A stretch of 64,000 bases of DNA. It comes from a virus. Position numbers and translations under genes: made by a program. The stretch spans positions 104,428 to 168,427 of the IMG/VR virus record IMGVR_UViG_3300013004_000026; one strand, 5' to 3'. The notes below the pieces were generated by a model. That model did not search any database and was not told the DNA's origin. It saw only the letters and a list, made by a program, of their open reading frames with translations. Within the stretch, counting starts at the first letter, position 1. Every line of letters begins with the position of its first letter. Below are positions 7,031-47,382 of this stretch, piece by piece.

Positions 7031-9382
7031 TTAGTTAAATACCCATCTGATGCTTGCCTGTGCTGTGGAGTGTGACACACCATTTTGATACTGCTGTCCC
7101 ACAGTAATACCTCCCACAATGTTTTGTCTTGGAGCAAAGTTGATTCCTGCTCTAACAGTGCTTAGGCTAGTATCTGTGTGACTGGCTTCTAGCATGAAAT
7201 TCACAGCGTCTTTGATCACAGTGTCATAGCGCAAGCCCAGTTCACTCACTGTGCGAGTACGATTAACACTGTCATATGACATGGCTGTGATAGCATCACC
7301 AGACTCTATCAGTGCATTGCGCTTGTTCTGTTCCACACGAATACCACCAAACGGCCTAAAGCCGCGCCAGTCTGGCGTATACAATCTGTTGCTGATCCAA
7401 GCATCTGCACCTGTGGTTTTACCAGAGTTTGAATAACCTAGGTCTGGCAACAGATGATAGTTGGTAAAACTGTTCTGAGCATAACCTACATCAGTTTTGA
7501 ACAACCAATTGTTATGGTTGTACAGGCTGTAGATACCCACATGGTCTTTGGTAAGTGATCCACCTGCATCTTGCCCTGACAGTGTGCCGCGCACATGATT
7601 GTATTGTAGACCCACTACCCAGTTGCCCTTGATCTGTTTTTCGTGCCCAACACCAAGGCGACGGTTGGTTAACGAGTAGGTGTCGTTGGTGTTGGTTGTG
7701 CCACCTTCTGTAACTAGATACCACCAGCCTTTTTCCTGACTACCAGCATTACGAGTTCTGCTGGTCAATCCTTCACCATTGCTGGTATGACGACTTAACA
7801 CATCGCTGTCCAAGTTCATGTTCATACGATTGTTAGCTGCCTCCAACTGACTGTATTGATCAATTCTAGTGTAATAGTTTTGATTGCTTGAAGTTGTTAC
7901 AACTTCGTTGGTAGTAGTTACATTGGTTGTGACATCGTTACGCACAGTCACAGTTGTCACTGGAGTTCCGTCGGCGGTAGTAGTAGTACCATCACTCCAG
8001 GTTGTTACTGTTCTAGGAGTGGTAACTGTGGTCACTGTTACAGGTGTTGTTTGAGTTGTAGTAGTGGTCACAGGTGTTGTGCTTACCACTGTGGTTGTAC
8101 GCACCACTGCCAACTGTTTGTTATCAGCTGTGGCGTCACCGCGGTTATTGGCATGAGTAACTACCTCTACAGTGTTGCCACGCACAATAGTAGCACTTGT
8201 TACTGTGGTGCCTGGGGTTTCTGTTGTCACAACCTGCGAAGTACCAGGTGCGGTGCTGACCACAGTGGGGGTAGTATTCAAGCTAGATGTCGCTCCGGAT
8301 GTGCCAGGATTGGCCACTGTACCATCGCCTGTGTCTGTGCTGGTTGTTGTGCTGGCGCTGTTGTAGTAATAGCTGACTTCAGATACTTGCACACTGTTAC
8401 AATTTTCAGTTCCCAACCAACCACCACCGTAGGCCGCCATACAGTTTGTCATGTTAGGATATAAATCCAGAGCCTTGGTGCTGTCAAAGGTGATAAAGTA
8501 ATACACATACGCATTGGTATTGGTAAAAGTGATATCGCTAGATGCAGTGAAGCGACTGTCACTGAGAGTTATGGCTTGATTGTCAACAATAGTAGTCCAA
8601 GTCTTGCCATCATTGGAGCCAAACAAACTGAATTTGCTAGGATCTCTTGGAGCATAGTCGTTGGCAGTGGTTATAGTTAACTTTTCCAGCACACGACCTT
8701 GATCCAGCTTGATTGTAAAACCAGCACTGGCACGATCAAAGTTCAGGTATTTTGTGCCTGAGTTGCCATCAATCACATTGGTAGCACCTTCTCCCGACGG
8801 ACTGTTATTGCTAGTTGGAGTCACTTGTACCACATTAGCACTGGTAATTGCTGTGTATGTTGGCGTGGTGCTGCCGCTACCGGCTGTTTGCCCTGCTGCC
8901 AATGGGGTGGTGCTGGCCCAGGTGTAACTGCTTATATCACCGGCACTAACACTGGTGTCCATATTGGTAAAACTGGCACTGGCACCGTAATTGTAGCCCT
9001 CTGCTGTGGAAATTACATTTCCAAGCCATCCACTACCAAGATAAAAGATAGCTCCACTTCCCAGTGCTGTTATCTGTCCTGTAGAGTGGATTATTCTATT
9101 CAGTGTGTTGTCACTGTTGTACAATCCCATACCATGAGTGCCATCACCATTGTCAATGAATTTGAAATATTGACCAGCGGTGGCTGTGACAGTTTGGAAA
9201 TTGGAATCATACGGTGCAATAAAATTTGAAGCGTTTAAGGTAGTTCCGCTCCAGTTGTATTGCACATCAAAGATTTGATTAATACTAAACGCACCATCTG
9301 TTACTGCGGCATTGGTGTTTGAAACCATGCCCATGGCCAAGGCCATAGCGGCCACGAAGGCCATTACTTTTTTTATTATCAT
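7031..9382 (-). CDS. Autotransporter-like outer-membrane protein: F5/8 type C (discoidin) domain, Thr-rich stalk, C-terminal beta-barrel
   Basis: Signal peptide; GEGATNVIDGNSGTKYL..RDPSKFSLFGSNDGKTW discoidin motif; T/V-rich linker; amphipathic beta strands ending IRWVFN. Confidence 0.75.
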   Translation of the reverse strand: MIIKKVMAFVAAMALAMGMVSNTNAAVTDGAFSINQIFDVQYNWSGTTLNASNFIAPYDSNFQTVTATAGQYFKFIDNGDGTHGMGLYNSDNTLNRIIHSTGQITALGSGAIFYLGSGWLGNVISTAEGYNYGASASFTNMDTSVSAGDISSYTWASTTPLAAGQTAGSGSTTPTYTAITSANVVQVTPTSNNSPSGEGATNVIDGNSGTKYLNFDRASAGFTIKLDQGRVLEKLTITTANDYAPRDPSKFSLFGSNDGKTWTTIVDNQAITLSDSRFTASSDITFTNTNAYVYYFITFDSTKALDLYPNMTNCMAAYGGGWLGTENCNSVQVSEVSYYYNSASTTTSTDTGDGTVANPGTSGATSSLNTTPTVVSTAPGTSQVVTTETPGTTVTSATIVRGNTVEVVTHANNRGDATADNKQLAVVRTTTVVSTTPVTTTTTQTTPVTVTTVTTPRTVTTWSDGTTTTADGTPVTTVTVRNDVTTNVTTTNEVVTTSSNQNYYTRIDQYSQLEAANNRMNMNLDSDVLSRHTSNGEGLTSRTRNAGSQEKGWWYLVTEGGTTNTNDTYSLTNRRLGVGHEKQIKGNWVVGLQYNHVRGTLSGQDAGGSLTKDHVGIYSLYNHNNWLFKTDVGYAQNSFTNYHLLPDLGYSNSGKTTGADAWISNRLYTPDWRGFRPFGGIRVEQNKRNALIESGDAITAMSYDSVNRTRTVSELGLRYDTVIKDAVNFMLEASHTDTSLSTVRAGINFAPRQNIVGGITVGQQYQNGVSHSTAQASIRWVFN

Positions 9383-35262: not shown

Positions 35263-35643
35263 TTAACTTCTATTAGAAGCAGCTCGTTTGGCCATTGCGT
35301 CAACAACTTTGGTAGGATCTTTGGCGTTGCCACTGTTCCCGGTGTCTTGCTCGCTCTCTGGGCTGGTACCGGGCTCATCTCCAAAGGGCTTGAAGCTGAT
35401 GTTTTTTTCGTCTAGATTGGTAATGAGATTTTTGAATGCTGGCTTGCTCATCATGTTTTGCAGCAATTGGTAATTTAACACACGGCTGCCTGCCATGTTG
35501 TTTACCATGTTAATAAACCCCGCGGTGCTGTGCGGGGTTGTTAACTTTTTGTTATGGTCTCGGTTACGCAAAAACTCCAGCGTGGTCAATATCTGCGCAG
35601 TGAGTTGATCCGAGTCCTCACTCAAGAACTCGTGTATGCGCAT
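35263..35643 (-). CDS. Hypothetical late protein (internal-head-like N-terminus)
   Basis: Starts MRIHEFLSE. Confidence 0.6.
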   Translation of the reverse strand: MRIHEFLSEDSDQLTAQILTTLEFLRNRDHNKKLTTPHSTAGFINMVNNMAGSRVLNYQLLQNMMSKPAFKNLITNLDEKNISFKPFGDEPGTSPESEQDTGNSGNAKDPTKVVDAMAKRAASNRS

Positions 35644-35645
35644 GA

Positions 35646-36338
35646 TTATCTCTTGCCGCGACCAAGTGTTTCGCCGCCGCCGGCAGCAGCATCGGTTGCA
35701 GCAAATTCATCTGGTGCTTCAATATCGCTGGCCATGTCTGGTGCAGGAGGAGCTTCCATGCCAGGCATACCTGGAGTTCCCATGTCACCACCTGGCATGC
35801 CCATTGGGGCAGCTACCTGTTCACCAGCCAGTGTTCTAGCAGCACCGTCAGATGCTTCGCGAGCACCTTGCAGTGCTGTTACCAACTCTTGCAGGATAGG
35901 AGTCACTGTGCCTTTGAAAGCATCAGCTTGTGGTTGACCAATTTGGTCACGAATGGTGTCCAGCAGTGCAGGTAACTGTTCGTTTTGCATTTTGCTGATG
36001 TCTTCTAGCATGTCCTGGAAGCTGTCTACGATGTCCTTGGCAGCCAGAATTGCACCGCTTTTGGCAATTTCGCTTTCTGTGAGTGGACGATTTTCGTCAA
36101 TCCAACGATTGAGTCCTTCGCGCACCATGAGCATTTCCATGTACTTTGGATTCTTTTCTGCTGTGTGAACGCCAAAATTATACTTTAGACGGTTTAGGTT
36201 TTCTGTCAAACTGACGCTGAGCTCTCGAGCTTTGCGTAAATTCAGCTTGCTGTAATCAATGCGAAAACCAAAGCGATTTTCGTTGATTCTGTTAATCTTA
36301 AGAGATGAAGGTTTAGTTGCGAGTTCTTGCAGTTTCAT
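35646..36338 (-). CDS. Hypothetical late protein, possibly prohead core/scaffold-like
   Basis: Starts MKLQEL; LTE motifs; acidic Pro-rich tail; TAAATA upstream. Confidence 0.55.
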   Translation of the reverse strand: MKLQELATKPSSLKINRINENRFGFRIDYSKLNLRKARELSVSLTENLNRLKYNFGVHTAEKNPKYMEMLMVREGLNRWIDENRPLTESEIAKSGAILAAKDIVDSFQDMLEDISKMQNEQLPALLDTIRDQIGQPQADAFKGTVTPILQELVTALQGAREASDGAARTLAGEQVAAPMGMPGGDMGTPGMPGMEAPPAPDMASDIEAPDEFAATDAAAGGGETLGRGKR

Positions 36339-36834
36339 GGTTTTTAGTTTCCCATACTTTAGAGTATTTAGCACTGTAGATTGTTTTTTGCATATTAGTT
36401 TTTAGATTTTCCAACCTTGGACGACTAATACTTAGCCTAGCTAAAAATAGGTCTTGTTTGAAAGCGTCATGACTACGCACTGCCTGTGCTAGTCCGTGTG
36501 TGTAATCTGTTACTTCTTGCAACATTTTTGTGAGAGCTACATCCATATGCACAAATTCTTGCGCTTTATGATACATGTTGCGGCTTTCGTACAAGCAAAA
36601 CAACACAGCAGCAGGGGCTACAGAAAATGTGTGCAGCGTGATACCGTACTGATTTTTTACAATCCAGACACCGTGCTGTTTCTTGAGTACAAATTTACCA
36701 ACACGATACAGATGTTTACCAACATCTACACATACGAATTCACGGCTGTCTACTAGAGCTTGTAGTTCTTTTTGGGTCCAACGGTCCAACATTCTTGCGG
36801 CTACTTCTGTTATTACTTCAGCAGTTGCAGTCAT
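36313..36834 (-). CDS. Hypothetical protein
   Basis: ORF from ATG 36834. Confidence 0.55.
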   Translation of the reverse strand: MTATAEVITEVAARMLDRWTQKELQALVDSREFVCVDVGKHLYRVGKFVLKKQHGVWIVKNQYGITLHTFSVAPAAVLFCLYESRNMYHKAQEFVHMDVALTKMLQEVTDYTHGLAQAVRSHDAFKQDLFLARLSISRPRLENLKTNMQKTIYSAKYSKVWETKNHETARTRN

Positions 36835-36844
36835 AGTGACTTGT

Positions 36845-37072
36845 TTAGACAAACGTTGATTGTTCTGGGATTTTTTTGTAATAGGTAACTTGCCCATTTT
36901 GATTTTTCCTGTACAGCACATCCTTGACCACTAGGTTATTGGCCAGCACAATCTCGCGTTCGTTGAGATCCTGCCTGGACACGCTGCTGTTATCGTAGAA
37001 TTTAGAAAGGAGGTCAGCTTCCTCATTTGTTACGGGCATGGACACGCCCTGTACGACCTCAATAATTTTCAT
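36845..37072 (-). CDS. Hypothetical protein
   Basis: 75 aa; ATGA overlap with the upstream gene. Confidence 0.6.
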   Translation of the reverse strand: MKIIEVVQGVSMPVTNEEADLLSKFYDNSSVSRQDLNEREIVLANNLVVKDVLYRKNQNGQVTYYKKIPEQSTFV

Positions 37073-37326
37073 TTGTTTATAAAATGCACTAGCACGGTTA
37101 TAAGCCCAGTTATTAAAACACTGATCACAGCGGTGCCAATGGCTATCAATTGTTTGCTCTGGCGATCACCTGCGCCAGCCAAGGTTTGCTTGATATCAAT
37201 GATATGAGTTTCAAGCTGTTCGACCTTTCTTTCCACGGTCTCTAGTTTGGTTTCCAACTTTTCATACCTTTCCGCACACAGCTCGACGTGGGCTTCAAGG
37301 TTGGTTTTTTCAATATTTGTCGACAC
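37069..37326 (-). CDS. Coiled-coil protein with C-terminal TM helix (holin/XhlA-like architecture)
   Basis: GTG start with GGAG RBS; heptads followed by a hydrophobic helix. Confidence 0.6.
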   Translation of the reverse strand: MSTNIEKTNLEAHVELCAERYEKLETKLETVERKVEQLETHIIDIKQTLAGAGDRQSKQLIAIGTAVISVLITGLITVLVHFINK

Positions 37327-37411
37327 CGACTTGCTCCGTATGGTTAACGATGCTGTTGTTGAGCCTTGATATGAGCCTTAATAAATTGCCTGTAATTGCC
37401 AAAACATCAGG

Positions 37412-37849
37412 TTATGTATTTACACCAAATGACGCAGTCTTAAAATATATGTTTTTAATGGCGCCGTGAGTGTAAAACACAGGCAACATGAAACGAGCAG
37501 TTTCGCTGAGATAGGTAATCACTGGAACTTGATCAAAATCTAAGTGCAGTAGATGTGCAGGATCAACAGCATCACCGAACACACCTGCGTGATCCACGGT
37601 GAAAGCAAAGCTCCATACACGGTGTGTGCCAGAGTAAAACTCTCCAAATTCATATGCGTTTAATTCTACTTCGTCAACTCGCCAACTGGTTTCCAGAGGC
37701 TGAGTGCGGATACCTATGCACTGTAACACTGTTTCCCAGTTGCGCTGTTGATTGCGCGGCAGATCATGTTCAACTTCCGTGTGTACCACTCCTGTTGGAG
37801 TGATATCAACAAGAGTATAACCAATGAATGTTTTGTCGGGCGAGTACAT
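37412..37849 (-). CDS. Hypothetical late protein
   Basis: 145 aa; TAAATA 8 nt upstream. Confidence 0.6.
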   Translation of the reverse strand: MYSPDKTFIGYTLVDITPTGVVHTEVEHDLPRNQQRNWETVLQCIGIRTQPLETSWRVDEVELNAYEFGEFYSGTHRVWSFAFTVDHAGVFGDAVDPAHLLHLDFDQVPVITYLSETARFMLPVFYTHGAIKNIYFKTASFGVNT

Positions 37850-37868
37850 GATGCAAATATTTAGTCAC

Positions 37869-37893
37869 AAAAAAAGCACCTTGCGGTGCTTTT
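37869..37893 (-). terminator. Rho-independent terminator
   Basis: AAAGCACC-GCAA-GGTGCTTT plus T-tract on the - strand. Confidence 0.85.
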
Positions 37894-37912
37894 CTTGTCA
37901 CGGTGAATGTGA

Positions 37913-38356
37913 TTATGGACGACGATAAGCAAAGTGTGTGTCAACAACTTCTGCGTTGGTTGCTGTAACTGCGCCTACGCTACCAATGTTACCAAGGGTA
38001 CGAATAACAGTTTGCAATGCCGCATTGCTGGTCCAACCTGAACGCTCTACTAGAACTGTCATGCTAGCACCTAAAGCGCCGGCTGCTGTGCCAGTATTAG
38101 CTGGGTTCACTTGATATGCAAGAACAGAAGCATTGCTTGAAATTGTTTTCAACAATGTATCAACTGCGCCTGGTACGCCTGAACCGTTTGGTCCACCTAG
38201 CTCTGCTGCCAAGTTACCTACGATTTCAATATTGTAAACATTCAAAGGACCAGCAACACCTGTGCTGATAATTTTACTGTTTGCATTTCTTGTGGTGTCT
38301 CCACCAACGTTTTGCACGTTTTGTGCATCACCATTTACTCTATTAAATACAGCCAT
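37913..38356 (-). CDS. Probable abundant virion structural protein
   Basis: Own TAAATA, AGGAG RBS and terminator; Ala/Gly/Asn/Val-rich. Confidence 0.6.
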   Translation of the reverse strand: MAVFNRVNGDAQNVQNVGGDTTRNANSKIISTGVAGPLNVYNIEIVGNLAAELGGPNGSGVPGAVDTLLKTISSNASVLAYQVNPANTGTAAGALGASMTVLVERSGWTSNAALQTVIRTLGNIGSVGAVTATNAEVVDTHFAYRRP

Positions 38357-38414
38357 TTTATTTCTCCTAATTTTAATGAGCGCAGTGCGCTACATGCAAA
38401 TATTTATGATCTTG

Positions 38415-38981
38415 TTATAAATCTAGTTCGTTTGGTAACAGATCCACAATGTCCAATAACAGCGCATGACGCTGTAATTCTCTGCGTAGATTACTCGCTG
38501 CCATACGCTTTTCAAAACGATTGCTACGAGTCCAGTCCATTACCACTCTTCGTATGCCGGTAAGTGTGGAATCACTTATGCTCAAAGCATATTCTAGATT
38601 TAGAAAAAACTGCCGATCCAGGCTGGGTGCAGAAATGCCCATGCGCAGTCTTTGCATATAACTATGTATCTGTAGCGACGGGGCATGCACATCAAAGTTT
38701 ACCTCTATACGCTCTGCATAGTCATTTTGATTGCTCAACACAGTTACCAAATTTGCCACATCTGTGGCTCCATTGCGCATCTTGTCAAAGTCATTGAACT
38801 GTAAGGTTCTGTAAGCATACATTTGACTGCGTTGGTCATTAAACTGCCTTATGAACTCCAAGGACAACATGGCCACATACAGCACTCGGCCCAGTTCGTG
38901 GGCTTTTTGTCCACGCAAGCCTGCTAGTCCGCGAAACATGCGGCTTTCTTTTAGTTCGTCTAAGAATTCAAAACTAGACAT
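38415..38981 (-). CDS. Hypothetical late protein
   Basis: Starts MSSFEFLDELKES; overlaps the upstream gene. Confidence 0.6.
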   Translation of the reverse strand: MSSFEFLDELKESRMFRGLAGLRGQKAHELGRVLYVAMLSLEFIRQFNDQRSQMYAYRTLQFNDFDKMRNGATDVANLVTVLSNQNDYAERIEVNFDVHAPSLQIHSYMQRLRMGISAPSLDRQFFLNLEYALSISDSTLTGIRRVVMDWTRSNRFEKRMAASNLRRELQRHALLLDIVDLLPNELDL

Positions 38982-40119
38982 TTTTTGCAAAGTTAGCTCT
39001 ACTGAAACCCAGTCGATCAATCAACTTGAACTTGTCAGCACCACCGCCTACCACATAGCCCTCGTGCCCTATATCGTCGCCAGTGTATGCTTGTACATCG
39101 CCACTGGCTTGTTGTGCATCAATTTGTTTTTTAACTGACAACTTGAGGTTGTACAAGGCTACCCATATGGCAAACATGCCTGCTAGGCCTTGTGCTCCTT
39201 CTTTGTAGAGATATCCAGGTTGCTCTTCTGTGCCAAGCAATTTGGTACTGGCTGCTCCGCTGAGATTTTGGCCAAGGTATGCGTAGAATCCTTCCAGCAT
39301 GTTATCAAAGTTGCCTGCGGAGATCTTGCTGGTAATATACTTGCTGGCCAGTCCAATGATACCTTTGGCTTTGAGTCCTGCAAGACTGCTCATGAAGTTG
39401 GTCACAGCATCTGAGTATTGATCAATGATTTTTTGCACAGGTGCTGTGTCAGCTGCGGCTATTTTGACCTTGGGCACAGGCATTTCACCTGTGACAAACC
39501 AAATTGGATTACCGTCAGCTGGTAATCCGCCTAGCCCTTGCAACGGCTGGTCAGCTTCACCCACGCCAGGTATAAAACTGTGTACAGCAATACCTGCGAT
39601 GCTGCTTTTGATTTTCTGTCCCACTGGACTATCTGCTTTCACACGATATGTGACTGTGTTGGGACGAAAAACATACATACCCTGTTGTGGTTGTAGCCGA
39701 CCTGCATACAGCAAATCTCCAAAGTAAAAGCCACGGAAATTGCCTGGTATGATAGATTCCAGTGCTGGCCACAGGGTGTCAATCTTGGCATGCAGGTCTC
39801 CGCGGTCAGCACCGCGATTCATGTCATATTGTTTGAATGCTTCTGGACTGGTAACACGGCCGCTGCCGTCCTTTTTTTCAAACATGTGCTTGTCTGTGAC
39901 CATGAGCTCGCCGTCCACATTGCGTCCAAACACCAGGGCTGGAAATCCGTCCCACTTGATAGTGGTAAGTTCTTTGCCTGTGCTCATACTAGACAGAGCA
40001 TTCATACTGCGGCTGGCACCTTCTATGCCATCAGTCCACACAGCATCTTCAGGATGTACAATGCCTTCCTTGATAAACACCGGTTCTGACGGTTTGTTAA
40101 ATATTTCTGTAATCTTCAT
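38974..40119 (-). CDS. Covalent nucleotidyltransferase/ligase-like protein (KxDG; DUF6267-like)
   Basis: TIKWDG (motif I), FYFGDLLY (III), HEGYVV (IV), FKLIDR (V). Confidence 0.6.
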   Translation of the reverse strand: MKITEIFNKPSEPVFIKEGIVHPEDAVWTDGIEGASRSMNALSSMSTGKELTTIKWDGFPALVFGRNVDGELMVTDKHMFEKKDGSGRVTSPEAFKQYDMNRGADRGDLHAKIDTLWPALESIIPGNFRGFYFGDLLYAGRLQPQQGMYVFRPNTVTYRVKADSPVGQKIKSSIAGIAVHSFIPGVGEADQPLQGLGGLPADGNPIWFVTGEMPVPKVKIAAADTAPVQKIIDQYSDAVTNFMSSLAGLKAKGIIGLASKYITSKISAGNFDNMLEGFYAYLGQNLSGAASTKLLGTEEQPGYLYKEGAQGLAGMFAIWVALYNLKLSVKKQIDAQQASGDVQAYTGDDIGHEGYVVGGGADKFKLIDRLGFSRANFAKNV

Positions 40120-41243
40120 TTGAAGTAGCCTTGAACTGTTTCCAGTCCTTGTAAAATTTTTTGTTTGTCGCTTTCAGCACGAGCAATAGCAGCAGGTGTT
40201 TGAGCTTTGTCACGCTTTTTGCCCTGCACATCAACCATGGCTTTGTCTTGATAACGCTGCCAAAACTTATTTAAGAAATCATCAGCACCGGAAAAGTTCT
40301 TTAGATCTCCTTGCCCAAACATGTTGTTGGCCTCGGCACTGGCTGCAAATGCCTTGACACCGCGCACGAGAGTTTCTATGTTGACTTTTTCAATATTGAC
40401 ACCGCCATAGGTTTTCAATGCTGGCACAATTTTTGGTTTATCAATGCCCTGTTGCTTTGCTAGATAGCGAAAAGTATCTAGTATAAATGATGTAGGTTCA
40501 GTGGTTACTGTGACTGTTTCAGTGTCTTTTTGCTTGCTAAACGGCACACGCTCGCCGTCAATTACTTTTAGTTGCACGCCTGCATGTTGAATACTCATGT
40601 CCAACAGCTCGCCCAACACACTCCACATGTTGCCAGTAAGCAGTCCTTTCACACCGTGTTGTGGTGTTACTCTAGTGGCGCCCCAGGTGCTTAACTTTGG
40701 TTCGTGCCACATGAAATCAACTTGTACAAAAGCATCCTTGCCAATGGCTATAATAGGGTGTCCTGGTTTACTTTCTGTGGACAACACATACGCAGGATTG
40801 GTTTCTTTTACAAACTCGTCGGCCAAGCGATTCCAAAAGCTAGTAAACTGTCCATAAGTTAATCCTTCCACCGGAGGCGCAATCATCTGTAGATCCACAT
40901 CACCGTAGACTTTTTCTGGATCATTTTTGGCATCTTGAGCATGGTAAGCACTGCTACCAGTGGGGCGACCCATCTGCACAGGTCCTTGACCTTGTGGTTG
41001 CAACCAGGTGTTGAAATCTGTTACAAACTGTTGAACCACTGCCAACGAGGATTTTACCACATTGGGTGTTATCACAGTGCCTTGAGTAGCTGTGGTATCC
41101 CACCCACCTTCTTGCACACTTTCTCCACCGTCGCCACCATCGCTGCTGTCGCCGTATGAGCCAAAGCCAGGAAACCAATAACCACTGTAGGCAAATTTAG
41201 ATTTCTTGTGGCGTTTTTCGCTTACAAAGTCTTTAGATTTCAT
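40116..41243 (-). CDS. Pol-beta superfamily nucleotidyltransferase-like protein
   Basis: PTGSS...YGDVDL and third acid in VQVDF. Confidence 0.6.
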   Translation of the reverse strand: MKSKDFVSEKRHKKSKFAYSGYWFPGFGSYGDSSDGGDGGESVQEGGWDTTATQGTVITPNVVKSSLAVVQQFVTDFNTWLQPQGQGPVQMGRPTGSSAYHAQDAKNDPEKVYGDVDLQMIAPPVEGLTYGQFTSFWNRLADEFVKETNPAYVLSTESKPGHPIIAIGKDAFVQVDFMWHEPKLSTWGATRVTPQHGVKGLLTGNMWSVLGELLDMSIQHAGVQLKVIDGERVPFSKQKDTETVTVTTEPTSFILDTFRYLAKQQGIDKPKIVPALKTYGGVNIEKVNIETLVRGVKAFAASAEANNMFGQGDLKNFSGADDFLNKFWQRYQDKAMVDVQGKKRDKAQTPAAIARAESDKQKILQGLETVQGYFK

Positions 41244-42013
41244 TATCTCACCAGCAGAGTTTGCATGGCGCGAAACCAACTGGGAGATCCTTCTTCTAGT
41301 TTTTTAGGCAGCATGATGAGACCTTTAACCTCGTCTTCACGAGCTTGTGCCAATTTCTCATCTTGCATGGGATCATTTTCCAGTGCTCGCAGAATACTTT
41401 TCACACTGTTGAGATCATCGCCAGTGGCTCGAGGATTGAGTAGAATCTTGGCCACGCTGTCTCTGTCTCTTGCTACCACAGTGTTATCGTCACGACGAAG
41501 TAGTTTAGCACCAAAGGCATCAAATTTCAAACCCAGTGCTTTGCCAATGCTGTTCATTAGAATAAAGATACTTTGTCCTTTGAATTCAGGATCATTGTAA
41601 CTGCCTCGAGGCCCATGCTGGTGATAAGGTGCAACTAAGGCAGCATCATTGATAACCATCACATCAACTTGAGCCATAGCGTCCTTGTAGGGCACGCCTA
41701 TGTGTACATTGTTGCCCTTGGTCACACTGTCAAAACCTTTGGCACGGAAAAAGTTTTCCAGTGCTTTTTTACCTGCTTTCACAGGTTCTTTTTCGTCTTG
41801 AGTTTGAAACAGTGCAACAACATCTTCTGCTTCAATCATGACATCAATGTCGCCTGATTCTACTTTGTAGCCTGCACTGCCAATGTCTATTTGCATGCGT
41901 TTCACTAACGCAGGCGGCAATGCTGATCGTACTTCGTCAACCACTTTTGCAACATCTCTTTTGGCTACAGGAATGCTGTTGGGAATGGCGTTTCCGCCTT
42001 CGTGTAATTTCAT
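41243..42013 (-). CDS. Pol-beta superfamily nucleotidyltransferase-like protein
   Basis: IGSAG...SGDIDV and third acid in AQVDVM. Confidence 0.7.
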   Translation of the reverse strand: MKLHEGGNAIPNSIPVAKRDVAKVVDEVRSALPPALVKRMQIDIGSAGYKVESGDIDVMIEAEDVVALFQTQDEKEPVKAGKKALENFFRAKGFDSVTKGNNVHIGVPYKDAMAQVDVMVINDAALVAPYHQHGPRGSYNDPEFKGQSIFILMNSIGKALGLKFDAFGAKLLRRDDNTVVARDRDSVAKILLNPRATGDDLNSVKSILRALENDPMQDEKLAQAREDEVKGLIMLPKKLEEGSPSWFRAMQTLLVR

Positions 42014-44832
42014 AGCTTTACTGCATCCAAAACAAAGTTTTCAAACTCTCGGGCCAACTTGGTGTCAGCTGATTCACGAATGTATTTGCCTCCATACGCC
42101 CGAGTTTGCTCGTTGGCCTGTGCCACACGCTGATCAGCCTGTGTAGAGGCTCCAGGATTGTTGGATACCAATTCGCTTGGCCCTAGCTGTTTTTTTGGTA
42201 CAGTATCTTGTGCGCCGCCTTTGCCTTTTGATCTTTTGCCTTTGGTGCGCTTGATGATTTCAGCTGGCTTTTCAGTGGTCTGGCCGGCAGAGGTGCCTCT
42301 AAATTGCTTTAGTTTTTCACGATAGACCGGTGGCGCAGCGCGAGACAACACACTCATTGCTGTGTCAATAATGGTTATAAGGTCATCGGCATACGCCATG
42401 CTAGTCATACGAGCCAACTGTGGTAGGATCATATTGGTTGCACTAGCAATTTGACCATCACCTTGTGAACCACCTGTTGTAGTGCCACCCGGTGTACTGC
42501 CTTGCATTCCGCCTGAGGTTGTAGTGGTTGTTGTGCTACCACCTGCGCCTGCACCACCTGCTCCAGTGTCAGTACTACTCACGCCTGCAGACATGTCTGG
42601 TGCACCATTGGCAAAGAATCTCACATTGCCCCGATCATCGCGATTGTATGGATCAATGGCGTCTGCTCCACCAGCTGCTCCACCAGCTGCTGCACCTGCT
42701 GCACCAGCTGCTGTTGCAGGAGCATCTAACTTAGGTGCTGGAAAATTAAGTTGTGTAAACAGTTGCTTGATAATCTCTGGTGGTACTTTTCTACCAACCA
42801 AGAACTTTGCCACTTCGTCGCTGTCTGTTGGTGAGTCTGCATCCTGCCAATGGCGTAATAAGCCATTTAGAGTTACCTTGGTAGTAGCTTCGCGCCATGA
42901 GTCTCCGGCCCAGTTGCCAAAACGCTTTAGGCCGCTTTCGATACCACGCATGAGCTTGCCGCCAAGTGGACCTTTGCCCTTGGTCTTGAACTTGCCTTCG
43001 GGATCAGCTGCCAAGTAAGGCATGGTGTTGCCTGCTGGAGCAGTTCCGGTGGCCAGCCCGCCTACATTGCCGCCTGTGAGTCCTGCCAATGGTCCAGCTG
43101 TGTTTGAAACATTGGTTGCGGATGTTCTGGCATTCTTTGCCATGGCTGCAGGATCATTGGCATTAGCAGGACGGCTGCGCACTGTACCGCCTTGTTGATC
43201 CTTTTGTAGATCAGCTGATGTTCTTTCTCCTCTACCAGCCGCAAAAGAATCTACAGTACCTGGATCAGGTATGCCAGGTTCTGGCGTAGAGGCAGCGATG
43301 TCTGCTGCCGCGGCTGGGTTTGATTGTGCAAACTGTTGTGCTGTCATTTTTCCTTTAACAGGCGCAGGAGCAGCTCTACCAGCTTTTTCAGCAGCAGCTT
43401 TGGCGGCAGCATTTTGTGTAGCAGCCTGCGCGGCGCCAGCACGACCTGCGGCTTGCCCCATGGCATGACTGCGCTCACGGCCAATGTTGTAACGGCGTGC
43501 TTCGTCCATGGCAAATTCATGCAATCGTTCTAGATTTGCAAACACTGTGCGAATGCCTGCTTCGTTCAATTGAACACTGCGTTTGTTGTCACGACCTAAA
43601 CTTTCATTTAGTGCCCATTTACGAACTGTAGCCTGACGATCAACCAACATGCCAACAGGTGCAGTGATAATATCAAAGCCTTCTAGTATGTTACGACCTT
43701 TTTTGATCTTGACAGATTCTGTACGCACCATTCTGTTAGCAAAAGGGTCCTGTGCAGACGGCGTTGGAGTTTGAGCAGACGGAGCTGATGAGGCTGCTGT
43801 CTTGGCCTTGGCTGCGGCTGCATCAGCTGCTATTCTTTTAGCGGCCATGCCTTGGTCTGACCCCAACTGTCCTGCATCCATTTTGTTCTGGATGTTTTGA
43901 GCTGTCATGGCATTGTCGCCACTGTAAGGCCCTTTGTAGGCCGCAGCATCAATGTTCTTTGGCAATACAATTTGATCGCCGGGACTGAGAATATTAGGAT
44001 TACCGCTAGGCCCAAACTTGCCAGGATTGAGCTTGGCCATAACATCTGGATCAACTTTGTACTTGGCACTAATGTCGCTGAGTGTGTCACCCTGTTTCAC
44101 TGTGATAGTTTGTGTTTCGCCGCCAGGTGGTACCACATTGTCTGGACCAGGTGGTACAACATTGTCAGGACCAGGTGGATTGGGCTTGAATGGGTTGTTA
44201 ATATCGGGAATGTCAGTGTTGGCAATAACGTCGCCTGCTGCTGTTGCGGCCTTGACACCAAGAGCTGCGCCCACTGGCCGTGTGGCACGACCTGCTGCTG
44301 TGCTGAACTGTTCACCTTGCATCAAGCCATCAATCATTTTGATTGCACCCAGGGCCAGCACAGGTGCTGCGCCGCTGGTAAGTAGACCAGTCAGCACCCC
44401 AGCTACACCCCAGAAAAACTTGCTGGTGGTAGGATAACGCTGAGCAGTTTGTTTGTATGTGTCAAGAGCTCGCAGTACCCTGGAGCCTTCTGGGCTCTTG
44501 CCCATGCCCATGCTGGCTGCTTTTTTGAGTTCATCAAACTTGGCATCAACACCTTGAACAACTGTGGTATCTTGCAGGGCTTTTCCCAGGCCTTTGATCT
44601 TGGCTCCTAGAGCTCCTGCTAGGTCGCCGGCCTTGCCCAGTATGTTACGATTTTTGTTACCGGCTGTCATTGCCTCTTCTGCACCCTTGAATAAATCGTG
44701 GATTTCGCTGCGATTGAGGGCCTTGCCTTCTGTGAGTTTATTAAGCTCACGCACCAATGCTACTGCTTCTTGGTATAGTGGGTGAGTCTGTATATCTAAA
44801 TCGTTATTGTTTGTTAGGTGTTGAAGTTTCAC
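42010..44832 (-). CDS. 940-aa LysM-domain protein with a hydrophobic segment and low-complexity linkers
   Basis: ITVKQGDTLSDISAKY..LNP..NPNILSPGDQIVLP LysM; FFWGVAGVLTGLL hydrophobic segment. Confidence 0.75.
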   Translation of the reverse strand: MKLQHLTNNNDLDIQTHPLYQEAVALVRELNKLTEGKALNRSEIHDLFKGAEEAMTAGNKNRNILGKAGDLAGALGAKIKGLGKALQDTTVVQGVDAKFDELKKAASMGMGKSPEGSRVLRALDTYKQTAQRYPTTSKFFWGVAGVLTGLLTSGAAPVLALGAIKMIDGLMQGEQFSTAAGRATRPVGAALGVKAATAAGDVIANTDIPDINNPFKPNPPGPDNVVPPGPDNVVPPGGETQTITVKQGDTLSDISAKYKVDPDVMAKLNPGKFGPSGNPNILSPGDQIVLPKNIDAAAYKGPYSGDNAMTAQNIQNKMDAGQLGSDQGMAAKRIAADAAAAKAKTAASSAPSAQTPTPSAQDPFANRMVRTESVKIKKGRNILEGFDIITAPVGMLVDRQATVRKWALNESLGRDNKRSVQLNEAGIRTVFANLERLHEFAMDEARRYNIGRERSHAMGQAAGRAGAAQAATQNAAAKAAAEKAGRAAPAPVKGKMTAQQFAQSNPAAAADIAASTPEPGIPDPGTVDSFAAGRGERTSADLQKDQQGGTVRSRPANANDPAAMAKNARTSATNVSNTAGPLAGLTGGNVGGLATGTAPAGNTMPYLAADPEGKFKTKGKGPLGGKLMRGIESGLKRFGNWAGDSWREATTKVTLNGLLRHWQDADSPTDSDEVAKFLVGRKVPPEIIKQLFTQLNFPAPKLDAPATAAGAAGAAAGGAAGGADAIDPYNRDDRGNVRFFANGAPDMSAGVSSTDTGAGGAGAGGSTTTTTTSGGMQGSTPGGTTTGGSQGDGQIASATNMILPQLARMTSMAYADDLITIIDTAMSVLSRAAPPVYREKLKQFRGTSAGQTTEKPAEIIKRTKGKRSKGKGGAQDTVPKKQLGPSELVSNNPGASTQADQRVAQANEQTRAYGGKYIRESADTKLAREFENFVLDAVKL
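44122..44177. repeat. 24-bp coding tandem repeat (PPGPDNVV x2) next to LysM
   Basis: ccaggtggtaccacattgtctgga / ccaggtggtacaacattgtcagga / ccaggtgg. Confidence 0.8.
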
Positions 44833-45070
44833 TGCGCATTCTCCGTATTCCCCTAATGAACTTGTTAGGGTCCTGCGCTCGAATGCTGTTCAACAGCCTG
44901 CGTTCTAGCTCAGAAGCCACTTCCTCATTATAGGATTCTCTAATGGTATTAATAAGGTTAATGGCGCCTTGTATAACATGGTCAGCACGACTTTCCAGCA
45001 CATTTTCTTTGTCCTTTTCGACAAAGTAGCTGTCTAGTTCTTCCAGTATACTACGGGTTTTTTTAAGCAC
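44804..45070 (-). CDS. Hypothetical late protein
   Basis: GTG start, GGAG RBS, TAAATA upstream. Confidence 0.65.
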   Translation of the reverse strand: MLKKTRSILEELDSYFVEKDKENVLESRADHVIQGAINLINTIRESYNEEVASELERRLLNSIRAQDPNKFIRGIRRMRSETSTPNKQ

Positions 45071-45121
45071 CCCAAGACTCCATTTCTCTATTATTTATTG
45101 CAAGTGCGTTTAGAGTTTGGC

Positions 45122-46519
45122 TTATCTTGCCTGGGCTTTGATGCCAGCCAGCATGCTTTTTAACTTGTTTGAACCCAGTTCCGCTTGTGCTGAAGCAGTC
45201 GATTCAGCAGTGTCAGGCTCCACAGTGCTTTTGGTTTTGATTTGATTCATGATATTCAGTGCCTGTGGACGATGTGAATCCCCTTGTTGATCTTCGGGCA
45301 AGTCTGTGATACGCAAACTTTCCATATTGTATTCTAGATCAACCTTTTGGCCAACCCCACTGCTGCTACGAGTTTTCATTAACTGTATTTGATAGCGTCC
45401 GCGCTCTTTCATGGCTCTTGAAGTAAAGATACCAAACACATTATCTGCTGTGTTAATCTTACTGATACCACCAGAGATATGACTGTGGTCAAATTCAATT
45501 TCTTCCACAGCACTGCGATTCAACTGACTTGCAGTGATCAACAGTATGTTGAACTCTTTGGCCAAATTGCGTAGTTCTTCACTCACATACTTGTCTTTTA
45601 CAAACAGATCGTTTGGTGATACCTTGGCACTCACTGGCATGAGCAAGTCCAGATAGTCTACCATTATGTAGTCTGTTTTCATTCCGGTTTGCACTTGCAA
45701 TTCTTTTAGATATGCACGAATGTCATTGATGTTGCTTTGTGCTGGCATGTATTTGATGCGCATTGCTCCGGCCTTTTTACCTACCAGCTTGATCTTCATT
45801 TCTACTGTGTCAATATCTTTGAAGATTTCACGAGTGCTCACATTGGCCAACATGCTATCTATGCGCATGGCACACAGGCCTTCACTGAGTTCTAGTGTTA
45901 GATACACACCATTGAGTCCTGCTAGTGACCAGTTACACGCAATGTTTTGCATGAACAAGGATTTACCTGATCCAGACCCGCCTGCAAAGATGTTGAGTTC
46001 GCCTCGGTTCATGCCGCCAAACAGTTTCTTGTCCATGGCAGGCCAGCCAGTACTGATTTGTCCGTTGCCTTCTCTGATGGCCATTAGTCGTCCACGAGGA
46101 TCAGCAAAATAGTCAGTGCCCATGTCTTTGGTCAAACTAATCTGCACAGCATCTTTGATCAGTTTTTCCACAGGATTGAACTCGCCTTTTTCAATCAAAT
46201 CTGCTGCTTTGAGGATGGCTCGTTCAAGTTCTTTTTGTTTGGTAAAACTTTCAAACTCTTCCATAAACCAATCAAAATGCCCGTCGCCTAGATCTGGAAT
46301 GCTTCGTAGTTCAACCCCAGTGACTGCTCGCACCTGTTCTAATGTGGGTAGAGTTTTGTGTTTGTCTGAGTGTTCTTTGACAAACTTGGCCACACTTCTG
46401 AGACTGCGGTCAAAGTTTTCATCATTGTAGATGTTTTGCACACGCACAAAACTCTGTGCGTCATGCAGCATCATTTCAAGAAAGAGTTTTTGTATTTCTG
46501 TATTATATTCTTTAATCAT
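45122..46519 (-). CDS. dnaB: Replicative DnaB-family helicase (gp41-like)
   Basis: GGSGSGKS, TLELSE, VDYLDL, TASQLNR, KTR. Confidence 0.92.
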   Translation of the reverse strand: MIKEYNTEIQKLFLEMMLHDAQSFVRVQNIYNDENFDRSLRSVAKFVKEHSDKHKTLPTLEQVRAVTGVELRSIPDLGDGHFDWFMEEFESFTKQKELERAILKAADLIEKGEFNPVEKLIKDAVQISLTKDMGTDYFADPRGRLMAIREGNGQISTGWPAMDKKLFGGMNRGELNIFAGGSGSGKSLFMQNIACNWSLAGLNGVYLTLELSEGLCAMRIDSMLANVSTREIFKDIDTVEMKIKLVGKKAGAMRIKYMPAQSNINDIRAYLKELQVQTGMKTDYIMVDYLDLLMPVSAKVSPNDLFVKDKYVSEELRNLAKEFNILLITASQLNRSAVEEIEFDHSHISGGISKINTADNVFGIFTSRAMKERGRYQIQLMKTRSSSGVGQKVDLEYNMESLRITDLPEDQQGDSHRPQALNIMNQIKTKSTVEPDTAESTASAQAELGSNKLKSMLAGIKAQAR

Positions 46520-47382
46520 AATTGCCTACAAGTATAACTGCAAACTGGCTGCGGATCAAATTGCATTTGCTCATCATACTGTCCCAACTGAGTCAACACT
46601 TGACTCAGCGTAGTGTTACTTATATTGTATGCTGCTGAGTCAGTGTGGAACTTGCTGCGATAATAGAATCTATGATCAGCTGCATAACAACATGGTGCGT
46701 ATTGTCCACTTGCACTGATATAGTGTTGATTGCCCACAGAACACTTTGGTTGTATCAATCCTGCACCTCTATGCCATATTAAAGTTTGTGACTGCGGACG
46801 CAGAGGATCTGTTTCTGCAAAACGATTGCTGGGATCTAGTTTTACATCGTGCATGCCTAGATCTTTGGCCATTTGTTGTATGGCAGGAATTTCGTGTTCA
46901 TTGAAACTAAAAGGCACCACTTTCCACACAGCTCTAGCGTCAGAATTTGCAACTGACTGTATGCCTTGTGCAATGGTGCTCCAATCACTGTTCACACGAT
47001 ATTTTACACTACTGTCTGGCAAACCGTCGATACTAAATTCCACAATGTCAGCTGGTGTCAGCATGCCCACCCAGGACTCCCACCAGGCACGATCTCTGTA
47101 GCTGCCATTGGTAGTGAGTACAATACGGCCTTGATTACTTTTTATAAACATTATCAAGTCACGCAGGTGTTCGTAGTAGATAGGATCTCCTGTGTTGCCG
47201 CAGATGCCCCAGGTAAGATTGGCAATGTCCACATCCAAGAAACTTTTCAGTGCTGATAGATCAAGATCTTGATTGTGCCAGTTCTTTCTACCAAACTGCT
47301 GAATAAATTGAGTGCGTTCACAGGCAGAGCATGCTAACACACATCTGTTGGTGGGTTCTAAATGAAAGCCGGAGATTTTCAT
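46516..47382 (-). CDS. Radical SAM protein with SPASM/twitch-like C-terminus
   Basis: CVLACSAC (CxxxCxxC), GDP, TTNG, FSIDG, PCC, C...C. Confidence 0.85.
   Translation of the reverse strand: MKISGFHLEPTNRCVLACSACERTQFIQQFGRKNWHNQDLDLSALKSFLDVDIANLTWGICGNTGDPIYYEHLRDLIMFIKSNQGRIVLTTNGSYRDRAWWESWVGMLTPADIVEFSIDGLPDSSVKYRVNSDWSTIAQGIQSVANSDARAVWKVVPFSFNEHEIPAIQQMAKDLGMHDVKLDPSNRFAETDPLRPQSQTLIWHRGAGLIQPKCSVGNQHYISASGQYAPCCYAADHRFYYRSKFHTDSAAYNISNTTLSQVLTQLGQYDEQMQFDPQPVCSYTCRQL

Follow-up and report, generated by a model that had tools for sequence, protein, structure and literature searches.

A conserved phage gene module that couples two putative Pol-beta-type nucleotidyltransferases to a ligase-like DUF6267 protein

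This article describes three overlapping genes, A, B and C, located in a stretch of 64,000 nucleotides (hereafter the window) that corresponds to bases 104428-168427 of the 168-kb IMG/VR viral record IMGVR_UViG_3300013004_000026. Since CheckV estimates this record to be only 47% complete, the source is probably a jumbo phage of about 350 kb; the viral contigs that carry homologues of the genes measure 245-372 kb. The window is coded almost wholly on the minus strand. A and B are predicted to be nucleotidyltransferases (NTases) of the Pol-beta superfamily and C a member of the ligase superfamily, and the best explanation of the data is that the three constitute one functional module of a T4-related giant phage. 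The module is conserved and undescribed, and is a variant of NTase-plus-ligase repair pairings assembled from unannotated families. The genes of the trio, followed by the two genes coupled to them, are:

41243..42013, minus strand: gene A, a 256-residue predicted nucleotidyltransferase of the Pol-beta superfamily and paralogue of B (motifs, hhalign)
40116..41243, minus strand: gene B, a 375-residue predicted Pol X-like nucleotidyltransferase (model, fold matches)
38974..40119, minus strand: gene C, a 381-residue DUF6267 protein, ligase-like (Pfam, model, motifs)
42010..44832, minus strand: a 940-residue low-complexity LysM protein (Pfam LysM 3e-8, residues 243-291)
38415..38981, minus strand: a 188-residue gene coupled to C, with the leader MSSFEFLDE

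Coupling, motifs and predicted folds of the trio

As read directly from the sequence, these five genes are joined in a chain by overlapping stop and start codons, namely ATGA between the 940-residue LysM gene and A, TAATG between A and B (TAA and ATG sharing an A), ATGA between B and C, and ATGTCTAG between C and the 188-residue gene. A preliminary description of this DNA, made from its letters, had taken the trio as overlapping and translationally coupled, and the overlaps agree with it. Because TAATG includes the stop codon of A, the true start of B is placed at the ATG at 41243, which gives a protein of 375 residues. A start at the TTG at 41279 (387 residues) merely yields the longest mechanical open reading frame and was rejected as too long.

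Both A and B conform to the Pol-beta signature, in which hG[GS] is succeeded by a DxD on the strand that follows, with a third carboxylate on one of the later strands. Residues G45-S46, G54-D55-x-D57 and Q115-V116-D117 of A are invariant among 43 homologues, as are G96-S97, Y113-G114-D115-x-D117 and D176 of B among 76 homologues (22-62% identity); S46, D55, D57 and D117 in A and S97, D115, D117 and D176 in B are the candidate catalytic residues. Pairwise BLAST between A and B was not significant (E 0.066). At the family level, hhalign aligned them with 96% probability (E 4.5e-9, 185 columns), superposing the EGG, GS, GDID, QVD and KG motifs, and the hidden Markov model (HMM) of the B family matches A at 1.3e-7. 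On the strength of these profile matches A and B are considered homologous despite the null BLAST result; they are, by profile, divergent paralogues, as had been proposed earlier from their GS, GDxD and QVD motifs, and A is assigned to the Pol-beta fold through its profile homology to B.

Neither protein belongs to an annotated family. No match was obtained for A or B in Pfam at E up to 1, in PHROG or in NCBIfam (C also lacks an NCBIfam match), and no solved structure was matched by sequence or profile search of the PDB; such searches with A, C, A1 and A2 as queries gave chance-level matches only. None of the 76 B-family members matches DNA_pol_B_palm, the corresponding thumb or any Pfam NTase model, and hmmscan with the PF10127 (RlaP) model found no match among A, B and these 76 proteins. 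The A family comprises at least 546 clusters at 90% identity and the B family 195 representatives at 50% identity (E up to 1e-3). All homologues of A and B are metagenomic and no cultured reference turned up for either: tblastn of A and B against 50,697 GenBank phage records found nothing at 1e-3, nor did blastn of the 3-kb region. A language-model look-up of A led to NTP_transf_2 and DNA_pol_B_palm clusters of viral proteins, which is taken as a lead only.

The AlphaFold model of B, based on the 76-sequence alignment, has a predicted local distance difference test (pLDDT) score of 89 and a predicted template modelling (pTM) score of 0.84, and residues 1-47 (pLDDT below 50) are its sole disordered stretch. 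It is organized in a palm, a thumb-like subdomain and a C-terminal helical domain (approximately residues 290-375). Upstream of the palm, a single helix (60-84) follows the disordered leader, with no helix-hairpin-helix fingers or 8-kDa lyase domain in the model. In an exhaustive VIA-align search the top nine matches were all family X polymerases (Z 8.8-10.3), with alignments of 167-197 residues spread over residues 39-301 of B, i.e., palm and thumb. They include Pol beta (4rpx_A, Z 10.3, 178 aligned residues, root-mean-square deviation (rmsd) 3.7), Leishmania Pol beta (Z 10.1), terminal deoxynucleotidyltransferase (TdT, Z 10.0), Pol X of African swine fever virus (ASFV; 5hr9_A, Z 9.8, 169 residues aligned of a 176-residue chain, rmsd 3.4 A), Thermus Pol X (Z 9.7), Pol lambda (Z 9.4) and Pol mu (Z 8.8). 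GLD-2, terminal uridylyltransferases, OAS, CD-NTases and alarmone synthetases aligned with the palm only (about 100 residues, Z 5.7-8.7), and the 50 matches listed were all Pol-beta-fold NTases or close structural relatives (Z 5.7-10.3). Foldseek also ranked Pol lambda and Pol beta first, with weak scores (E 6e-4, TM 0.31-0.45). Given that the nine family X polymerases lead the VIA-align ranking over palm and thumb, the best reading of the model is that B, and by homology A, are minimal Pol X-like nucleotidyltransferases.

Protein C matches Pfam DUF6267 (PF19782) over positions 6-374 of the 376 in the model, at 4.2e-33 and with 115.7 bits, where the cut-off is 27. Members of this family are found in 289 GenBank phage records, the majority from T4-like cyanophages. 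Motif I of the ligase superfamily is found as K55-W-D57-G58, with K, D and G invariant in 37 C sequences (43-87% identity), and is kept in the cyanophage homologues as IKWDGAPA. Further conserved motif candidates, assigned by pattern and by order along the sequence, are G134-D135 (III), F151-x-P153-N154 (IIIa), E353-G354-Y-V356 (IV) and K363-x-K365 (V), of which G134-D135, F151/P153/N154, E353-G354-x-V356 and K365 are invariant in the family. In motif III an Asp (GDLLY) replaces the Glu that is usual in ligases. Motif I is preceded by an invariant HPED, and a helical insert of about 115 residues (222-337) separates motif IIIa from motif IV. Neither an oligonucleotide-binding (OB) domain nor motif VI is present, as the protein ends about 15 residues past motif V and its model has no beta-barrel domain. 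In P-SSM4 the DUF6267 homologue (PSSM4_154, L004:4980-5906) is only 308 residues long and matches the family HMM at positions 12-122 and 310-373, the middle being unmatched; some cyanophage DUF6267 proteins thus have a divergent or a shorter region around motifs III and IIIa.

The model of C has a pLDDT of 89, except for residues 1-18 (below 50). VIA-align places RNA or DNA ligases, and nothing else, at ranks 1-24 and capping enzymes at ranks 28-46; for ligases and capping enzymes together Z descends from 7.7 to 4.3 with 142-203 residues aligned, a uniform list of middling values that has to be read with the guidance of the tool that a Z under 8 can reflect a common arrangement. The highest score corresponds to NgrRnl, the nick-sealing RNA ligase of Naegleria (5cot_A, Z 7.7, 191 aligned residues), followed by Trl1 (6.8), a Prochlorococcus DNA ligase (6.6), LigIV (6.5), REL1 (6.4) and T4 Rnl2 (6.1-6.4). 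Foldseek matches were weak (E 0.05 or worse) and mostly to ligases, and comparison with solved ligases by sequence gave no significant match. From the ordered ligase motifs together with the ligase fold matches, C is predicted to be a ligase-superfamily nucleotidyltransferase, RNA-ligase-like and devoid of an OB domain. The preliminary description had recognized ligase motifs I, III, IV and V without an obvious OB domain, and had placed A and B among Pol-beta NTases and C in the KxDG ligase superfamily; the motifs recur in order as conserved candidates, Foldseek and VIA-align recovered the folds for B and C, and the main candidate catalytic residues are invariant in the alignments of the A, B and C families. 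Overall, the fold assignments of the trio are held with high confidence.

Fusions and partners of the three genes

When the family HMMs were applied to the fetched homologues, several fusion proteins were detected. P0318 (944 residues) is composed of C (19-382), B (386-718) and A (718-936), P0324 of C, B and an additional Pol-beta-like tail, and P0275 of A and B. P0341 joins an RNA_ligase-like domain, an NTase with a HIGH motif and B, its distant C-like domain giving a weak Pfam RNA_ligase match (5.7e-4, below the cut-off). Gene order was surveyed in 80 IMG/VR loci (L006-L085) retrieved through their C homologues, so that the co-occurrence counts are conditioned on C. A and/or B are found directly upstream on the same strand, or fused, in 24 of the 80, in the orders A-B-C, B-A-C and A-C, and in 7 of those 24 loci A and C form a single open frame. 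Hence the genes of the trio are adjacent or fused in many phages, a co-occurrence whose absence would, in the preliminary description, have refuted its proposal, and it is very probable that A, B and C are functionally linked as one module. B is not always present, since other genes take its place in L002 (a 215-residue gene between A and C) and in L003 (a 411-residue gene after A), neither of which is B according to BLAST and HMM searches. Prediction of a complex between C and residues 44-375 of B scored 0.00 in both runs, which is no evidence either way.

A recurrent fourth partner, of C, was missed by the preliminary description. In 31 of the 80 loci an NTase with a HIGH motif is fused to the C-terminus of C or encoded directly downstream of it; its motifs (GRxNPPxxGH ... 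SGSxxR) are NadM/cytidylyltransferase-like. In the cyanophages P-SSM4 (L004:5893-7044) and P-RSM6 (L005:6207-7304) the gene after DUF6267 is annotated as 'cytidyltransferase', which suggests that DUF6267 and the HIGH NTase form a conserved pair of a ligase-like and an NMNAT-like enzyme. No intact HIGH motif occurs next to C in the window, and a search for the HIGH domain in the 47% complete source record gave no match, although the control searches also matched nothing. The position of the HIGH NTase is occupied here by the 188-residue gene, which has no HxGH motif and whose orthologues follow C in L006 (38% identity, 1e-41) and L002. Its product weakly resembles the C-terminal half of the HIGH domain (hmmsearch 0.003, and 6e-6 for the L006 ortholog; hhalign 91%, E 1.2e-6, with only 9% identity) and may, from this similarity, be a degenerate remnant of that domain.

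The B domain also occurs inside multidomain proteins of 600-1700 residues (P0252, P0263, P0244, P0259, P0317 and P0276), accompanied by Amidoligase_2, gamma-glutamyl cyclotransferase (GGACT/AIG2), DUF5661, GH19 chitinase, DUF6934 or a second Pol-beta palm, an architecture shared with the 'polyvalent' phage proteins. In the T4-like contig L003 the A homologue (8373-9122) has gp23 with DUF7936 on one side and three clustered glycosyltransferases on the other; beyond this cluster lie an unannotated 287-residue gene and a PolyA_pol (CCA-adding-type) NTase.

Leader sequences, head packaging and genomic setting

Each protein of the trio begins with a short leader that ends in (L/I/V)-x-E just before the conserved core:

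41999..42013, minus strand: leader of A, MKLHE, ending L-H-E before the invariant G6-G7, a candidate prohead-protease site
41109..41243, minus strand: leader of B, residues 1-45 (pLDDT below 50), ending V-Q-E before G46-G47-W
40066..40119, minus strand: leader of C, MKITEIFNKPSEPVFIKE, ending I-K-E before the conserved core G-I-V-H-P-E-D

The junctions read MKLHE/GGNAI in A and ...SVQE/GGWDT in B, whose leader starts with MKSKDFVSE and continues as a Gly/Ser/Asp-rich linker; C starts with MKITEIF and its leader ends in ...FIKE. The G-G pair is nearly invariant and begins the well-predicted part of the B model. In the A family, E directly precedes GG in 111 of 111 proteins and L, I or V stands three positions before it in 110, the middle residue being variable. 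Among the B-family proteins with an N-terminal extension (50%-identity representatives) E precedes GG in 90 of 108 and I, L or V stands three before in 91, again with a variable middle residue, and 24 further B-family proteins begin M/GG. The usual leader of B homologues is only 9 residues long (MRAKEFIRE/GGW, MKINEVLLE/GGW, MRIYELISE/GGW). The C-family consensus is MKIxE...LxE/GIxHPED, with E before the core in 60 of 114 proteins and a 2-residue insert after E in many others. The same sites are found at domain junctions of the fusion proteins, e.g., ...IVE/GGW and ...LNE/GGN in P0318. The putative mature ends at E/GG pointed out in the preliminary description are a family-wide feature. That EGG could merely mark the start of the fold was considered and set aside: the E is dispensable, as in the proteins that begin M-GG, and extended proteins retain a hydrophobic residue at the third position before GG. 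A cleavage site fits this pattern better, which is not proof.

The capsid-targeting sequence of T4, MKTYQEFIAE, is removed by the prohead protease (PMC8442874), and the six-residue leader of T4 Alt is cut at I-T-E (PMC5694885). Leaders of the trio families such as MRAKEFIRE resemble both. Capsid-targeting-like leaders were found in 6 of the 71 genes of the window, all in the block 35263-42013 on the minus strand; besides A, B, C and the 188-residue gene (MSSFEFLDE), they belong to proteins of 126 (MRIHEFLSE) and 230 residues (MKLQELATK), the latter matching PHROG 14154, 'virion structural protein'. Peptidase_S77, the family of T4 gp21, was detected in 3 of 4 related records that bear the module, one of them complete at 372 kb, and also in the T4-like contig that holds an A homologue two genes after gp23. 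From the (L/I/V)-x-E endings just before the cores, we infer loading into the prohead and trimming by a gp21-type protease. The trio shares with the T4 internal proteins and Alt the short N-terminal leaders ending in (L/I)-x-E, the gene cluster and the occurrence of a gp21-family protease in related phages; mature A, B and C have no sequence homology to IPI-III or Alt, and their packaging is predicted from sequence. To our knowledge, nucleic-acid enzymes are not known as head cargo of T4. Packaging in the virion, proposed in the preliminary description, is in keeping with the leaders, their candidate cleavage sites and the gp21-type protease of the relatives, and the source record itself (47% complete) gave no S77 match; altogether, we regard it as moderately probable that the trio is packaged in the phage head.

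The trio belongs to a putative operon that starts with two further features:

44804..45070, minus strand: an uncharacterised 88-residue gene (open reading frame list), first of the putative operon, overlapping the start of the 940-residue gene
45092..45097, minus strand: a TAAATA motif that could be the core of a late promoter of T4 type; the first gene of the operon begins about 25 nt further downstream

The window has 26 copies of TAAATA on its coding (minus) strand and 11 on the plus strand. The minus-strand copies lie mostly 10-40 nt upstream of start codons, at 45097, 38406, 37863, 36370, 35243, 32883, 24489, 22904, 20847, 20163, 14760, 9430, 6976 and 6604, among others, and the copy that follows the one heading the operon, at 38406, is situated beyond the 188-residue gene. 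The full T4 late consensus TATAAATA is found once in the window, which is not above chance, and for this reason the reading of TAAATA as a late promoter core, shorter than TATAAATA, stays a lead only. A scan of 37800-45300 for sigma-70 promoters and terminators gave nothing above shuffled sequences.

The 940-residue protein contains a single LysM amid long low-complexity stretches rich in Ala, Gly, Pro and Thr and a PPGPDNVV tandem repeat; it has weak PHROG matches to transglycosylase and endolysin and may be an ejected peptidoglycan-binding protein. In L002, a related 359-kb contig, a syntenic gene of 831 residues takes its place before A. Upstream of the trio are encoded a primase, a radical-SAM protein and a DnaB-like helicase, and downstream several small uncharacterised genes, a PD-(D/E)XK exonuclease, a tail-spike-like protein and ribonucleotide reductase. 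The radical-SAM gene (46516-47382, minus strand) is flanked by the primase and the helicase; a radical-SAM gene is also found near the module in L002 (L002:11606-12658).

Possible functions of the module and related systems

We propose that A, B or both extend 3'-OH ends by one or a few nucleotides, or else fill in short gaps, and that C forms a covalent Lys55-nucleoside monophosphate (NMP) intermediate and seals the nick left after that step, in such a way that the trio would work as a heal-and-seal kit for broken nucleic acid. The enzymes would be loaded into the prohead through their leaders, trimmed by the gp21-type protease, so that A and B would begin with Gly-Gly and C with Gly-Ile, and delivered together with the phage DNA. 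That the trio acts on polynucleotide ends is slightly favoured, and the whole statement, in which a kit for extending and sealing nucleic-acid ends is delivered from the head, has in our judgement an even chance of being correct; the substrates, the order of action, packaging and injection are all inferred. RNA and DNA are about equally likely as substrates: an OB-less, Rnl-like ligase leans to RNA or to 3'-ribo ends, and DNA would suit the Pol X-like fold and the proximity of replication genes.

Several known systems combine similar activities. In ASFV, base-excision repair employs Pol X together with the DNA ligase of the virus, a viral Pol X-like enzyme partnered with a ligase-superfamily enzyme as proposed here. 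B aligns with nearly the whole chain of this 174-residue polymerase, over palm and thumb, has the same GS / DxD / D catalytic set and likewise lacks the 8-kDa and helix-hairpin-helix fingers domains. The two systems differ in that B shows no similarity to ASFV Pol X at the sequence level (no Pfam palm or thumb, no PDB match), possesses in addition a helical domain at its C-terminus (about 290-375) and a leader that looks cleavable, and is one of two paralogous NTases where ASFV has one; the ASFV ligase (6imk_A), a DNA ligase with an OB domain, reaches only Z 5.3 against the OB-less, RNA-ligase-like C. In bacterial non-homologous end joining, LigD contains ligase, polymerase and phosphoesterase in one protein. 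It resembles the module in having a ligase fused or next to template-optional domains for nucleotide addition, the order being variable (C-B-A, A-B and A-C in the module). The polymerase of LigD has the archaeo-eukaryotic primase fold and its ligase an OB domain, in contrast to the Pol-beta fold and OB-less ligase of the module, and no Ku partner was seen here.

The best folds for C are OB-less RNA ligases (Rnl5/NgrRnl, T4 Rnl2, Trl1 and REL1; Z 6.1-7.7, 177-203 residues aligned), with which it shares KxDG, the EG of motif IV, the KxK of motif V and the lack of an OB domain and motif VI. It differs from them in the helical insert of about 115 residues, the HPED before motif I and the Asp in motif III, and lacks the N- or C-terminal accessory domains of Rnl1, Rnl2 and Rnl5. 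RlaP NTases, Pol-beta enzymes that adjoin RNA ligases and are treated by Burroughs and Aravind and in a 2025 preprint by Carruthers et al., add 1-2 NMP to damaged RNA 3' ends (PMC7824862; bioRxiv 10.64898/2025.12.29.696909). RlaP (PF10127) is coupled genomically to an ATP-grasp-type RNA ligase in phages, jumbo phages included, much as the ligase-like C is linked to A and B by coupling or fusion, and the NMP addition by RlaP before ligation is the mechanism proposed for A/B and C; the analogy is functional only. A and B do not match PF10127, and the ligase is DUF6267 and not Rnl1 or Rnl2. In addition, A, B and C carry capsid-targeting-like leaders and fuse with one another, neither of which, as far as we know, has been reported for RlaP.

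Several points weigh against a head-delivered end-repair kit. RNA repair after metal-independent RNases needs an end-healing kinase or phosphatase, and none was seen adjoining the trio. Both here and in cyanophages, C comes shortly after the genes of the replicative helicase and primase, a location that a cytoplasmic role in replication or repair fits equally. A simple fill-and-seal scheme leaves the recurrent HIGH (NMNAT-like) partner unexplained. The lead of family X in the B search is modest (Z of about 10 against 8.7 for other NTases) and has no sequence match beside it; the best Z of C, 7.7, is under the caution value of 8 of that tool, and a literature search for DUF6267 found no paper. 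As for packaging, neither an S77 protease nor gp23 was found in the source record, which is 47% complete and in which control searches matched nothing. In cyanophages a leader is missing from the C homologues, which start directly at HPED, but is present in the cytidylyltransferases encoded beside them. In addition, (L/I/V)-x-E might belong to the structure of the domain instead of being a cleavage site.

Some of these points are better accommodated if the trio acts as unpackaged, cytoplasmic helpers of the replisome that fill gaps and seal nicks, either on the lagging strand or in base-excision-type repair, much as Pol X and the ligase of ASFV do, the leaders being structural or irrelevant. 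The trio follows directly the primase, radical-SAM and DnaB-like helicase genes, with the same synteny in L002, and in T4-like cyanophages DUF6267 comes after gp43, UvsX, gp41 and MazG; the leaderless cyanophage C proteins and the family X polymerases as best fold matches of B likewise favour this explanation. It accounts poorly for (L/I/V)-x-E being kept across the families, fusion junctions included, while the middle residue varies, for the clustering of leader genes, for the late-type TAAATA and the LysM protein of the operon, and for an A homologue near gp23 in a T4-like contig, and C lacks the OB domain typical of DNA ligases. We consider this explanation improbable, albeit the strongest of the alternatives. 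Somewhat less likely still is a module that makes or transfers a nucleotide-containing small molecule or cap (NAD-linked, or RNA 5' capping or adenylylation), or else signalling or decoy oligonucleotides. C would then be a capping-type or NAD-using nucleotidyltransferase with the HIGH NMNAT-like partner supplying the donor, as could be suspected from the fusion or adjacency of C and the HIGH NTase in 31 of 80 loci and in cyanophages. Capping enzymes and ligases belong to the same superfamily, and capping enzymes do appear among the fold matches of C (Z 4.5-4.7), but ligases outrank them throughout and the window has no intact HIGH motif beside C. The decoy variant, one of the options raised in the preliminary description, draws on the match of CD-NTases and OAS to the palm of B (Z about 7-7.8); family X covers about 170-197 residues of B, thumb included, against about 105 for CD-NTases.

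Some Pol-beta NTases modify proteins, and the trio could also consist of injected effectors that nucleotidylylate host proteins (AMPylation or UMPylation), all three acting on proteins with a strategy like that of T4 Alt. The leaders and cleavage sites would be as in Alt, and the B domain is found in polyvalent proteins with amidoligase, gamma-glutamyl cyclotransferase and chitinase, a class of phage proteins proposed as injected effectors (PMC5512222; PMC7824862). No family of protein-modifying NTases, such as GlnE or the DrrA type, is present among the top 50 fold matches of B, and the obligatory pairing with a ligase-fold enzyme would be left unexplained. This is the least likely of the readings considered here. 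Protein AMPylation and decoy signals, both contemplated in the preliminary description, lose ground, as the best matches of B are family X polymerases over palm and thumb.

The head-delivered extension and sealing of nucleic-acid ends can be carried further, at a lower probability. In this extended and rather doubtful form, a complete polynucleotide fill-and-seal machine would be packaged in the heads of giant T4-related phages and injected with their DNA, made up of two minimal Pol X-like transferases, an OB-less ligase and, often, a HIGH-motif NTase. Some phages would make it as a polyprotein that the prohead protease cuts at the (L/I/V)-x-E/GG junctions, and its targets might be nicks and ends of the incoming genome or tRNA cleaved by the host. 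It would then be the first virion-delivered nucleic-acid repair kit, at work before phage gene expression.

With these results Pfam DUF6267 gains a fold and a testable chemistry, two abundant and unannotated families of Pol-beta NTases known only from metagenomic phages are defined, and multiple independent gene fusions bind the trio together. The minimal Pol X-like enzymes (about 250-330 residues, without DNA-binding accessory domains) and the OB-less ligase may serve as useful enzymes. If the leaders are truly capsid-targeting, phages would eject enzymes for the repair or tailing of nucleic acids together with their DNA. Such cargo would form a class of its own, new among ejected proteins, and could play a part in counter-defence against nucleases.

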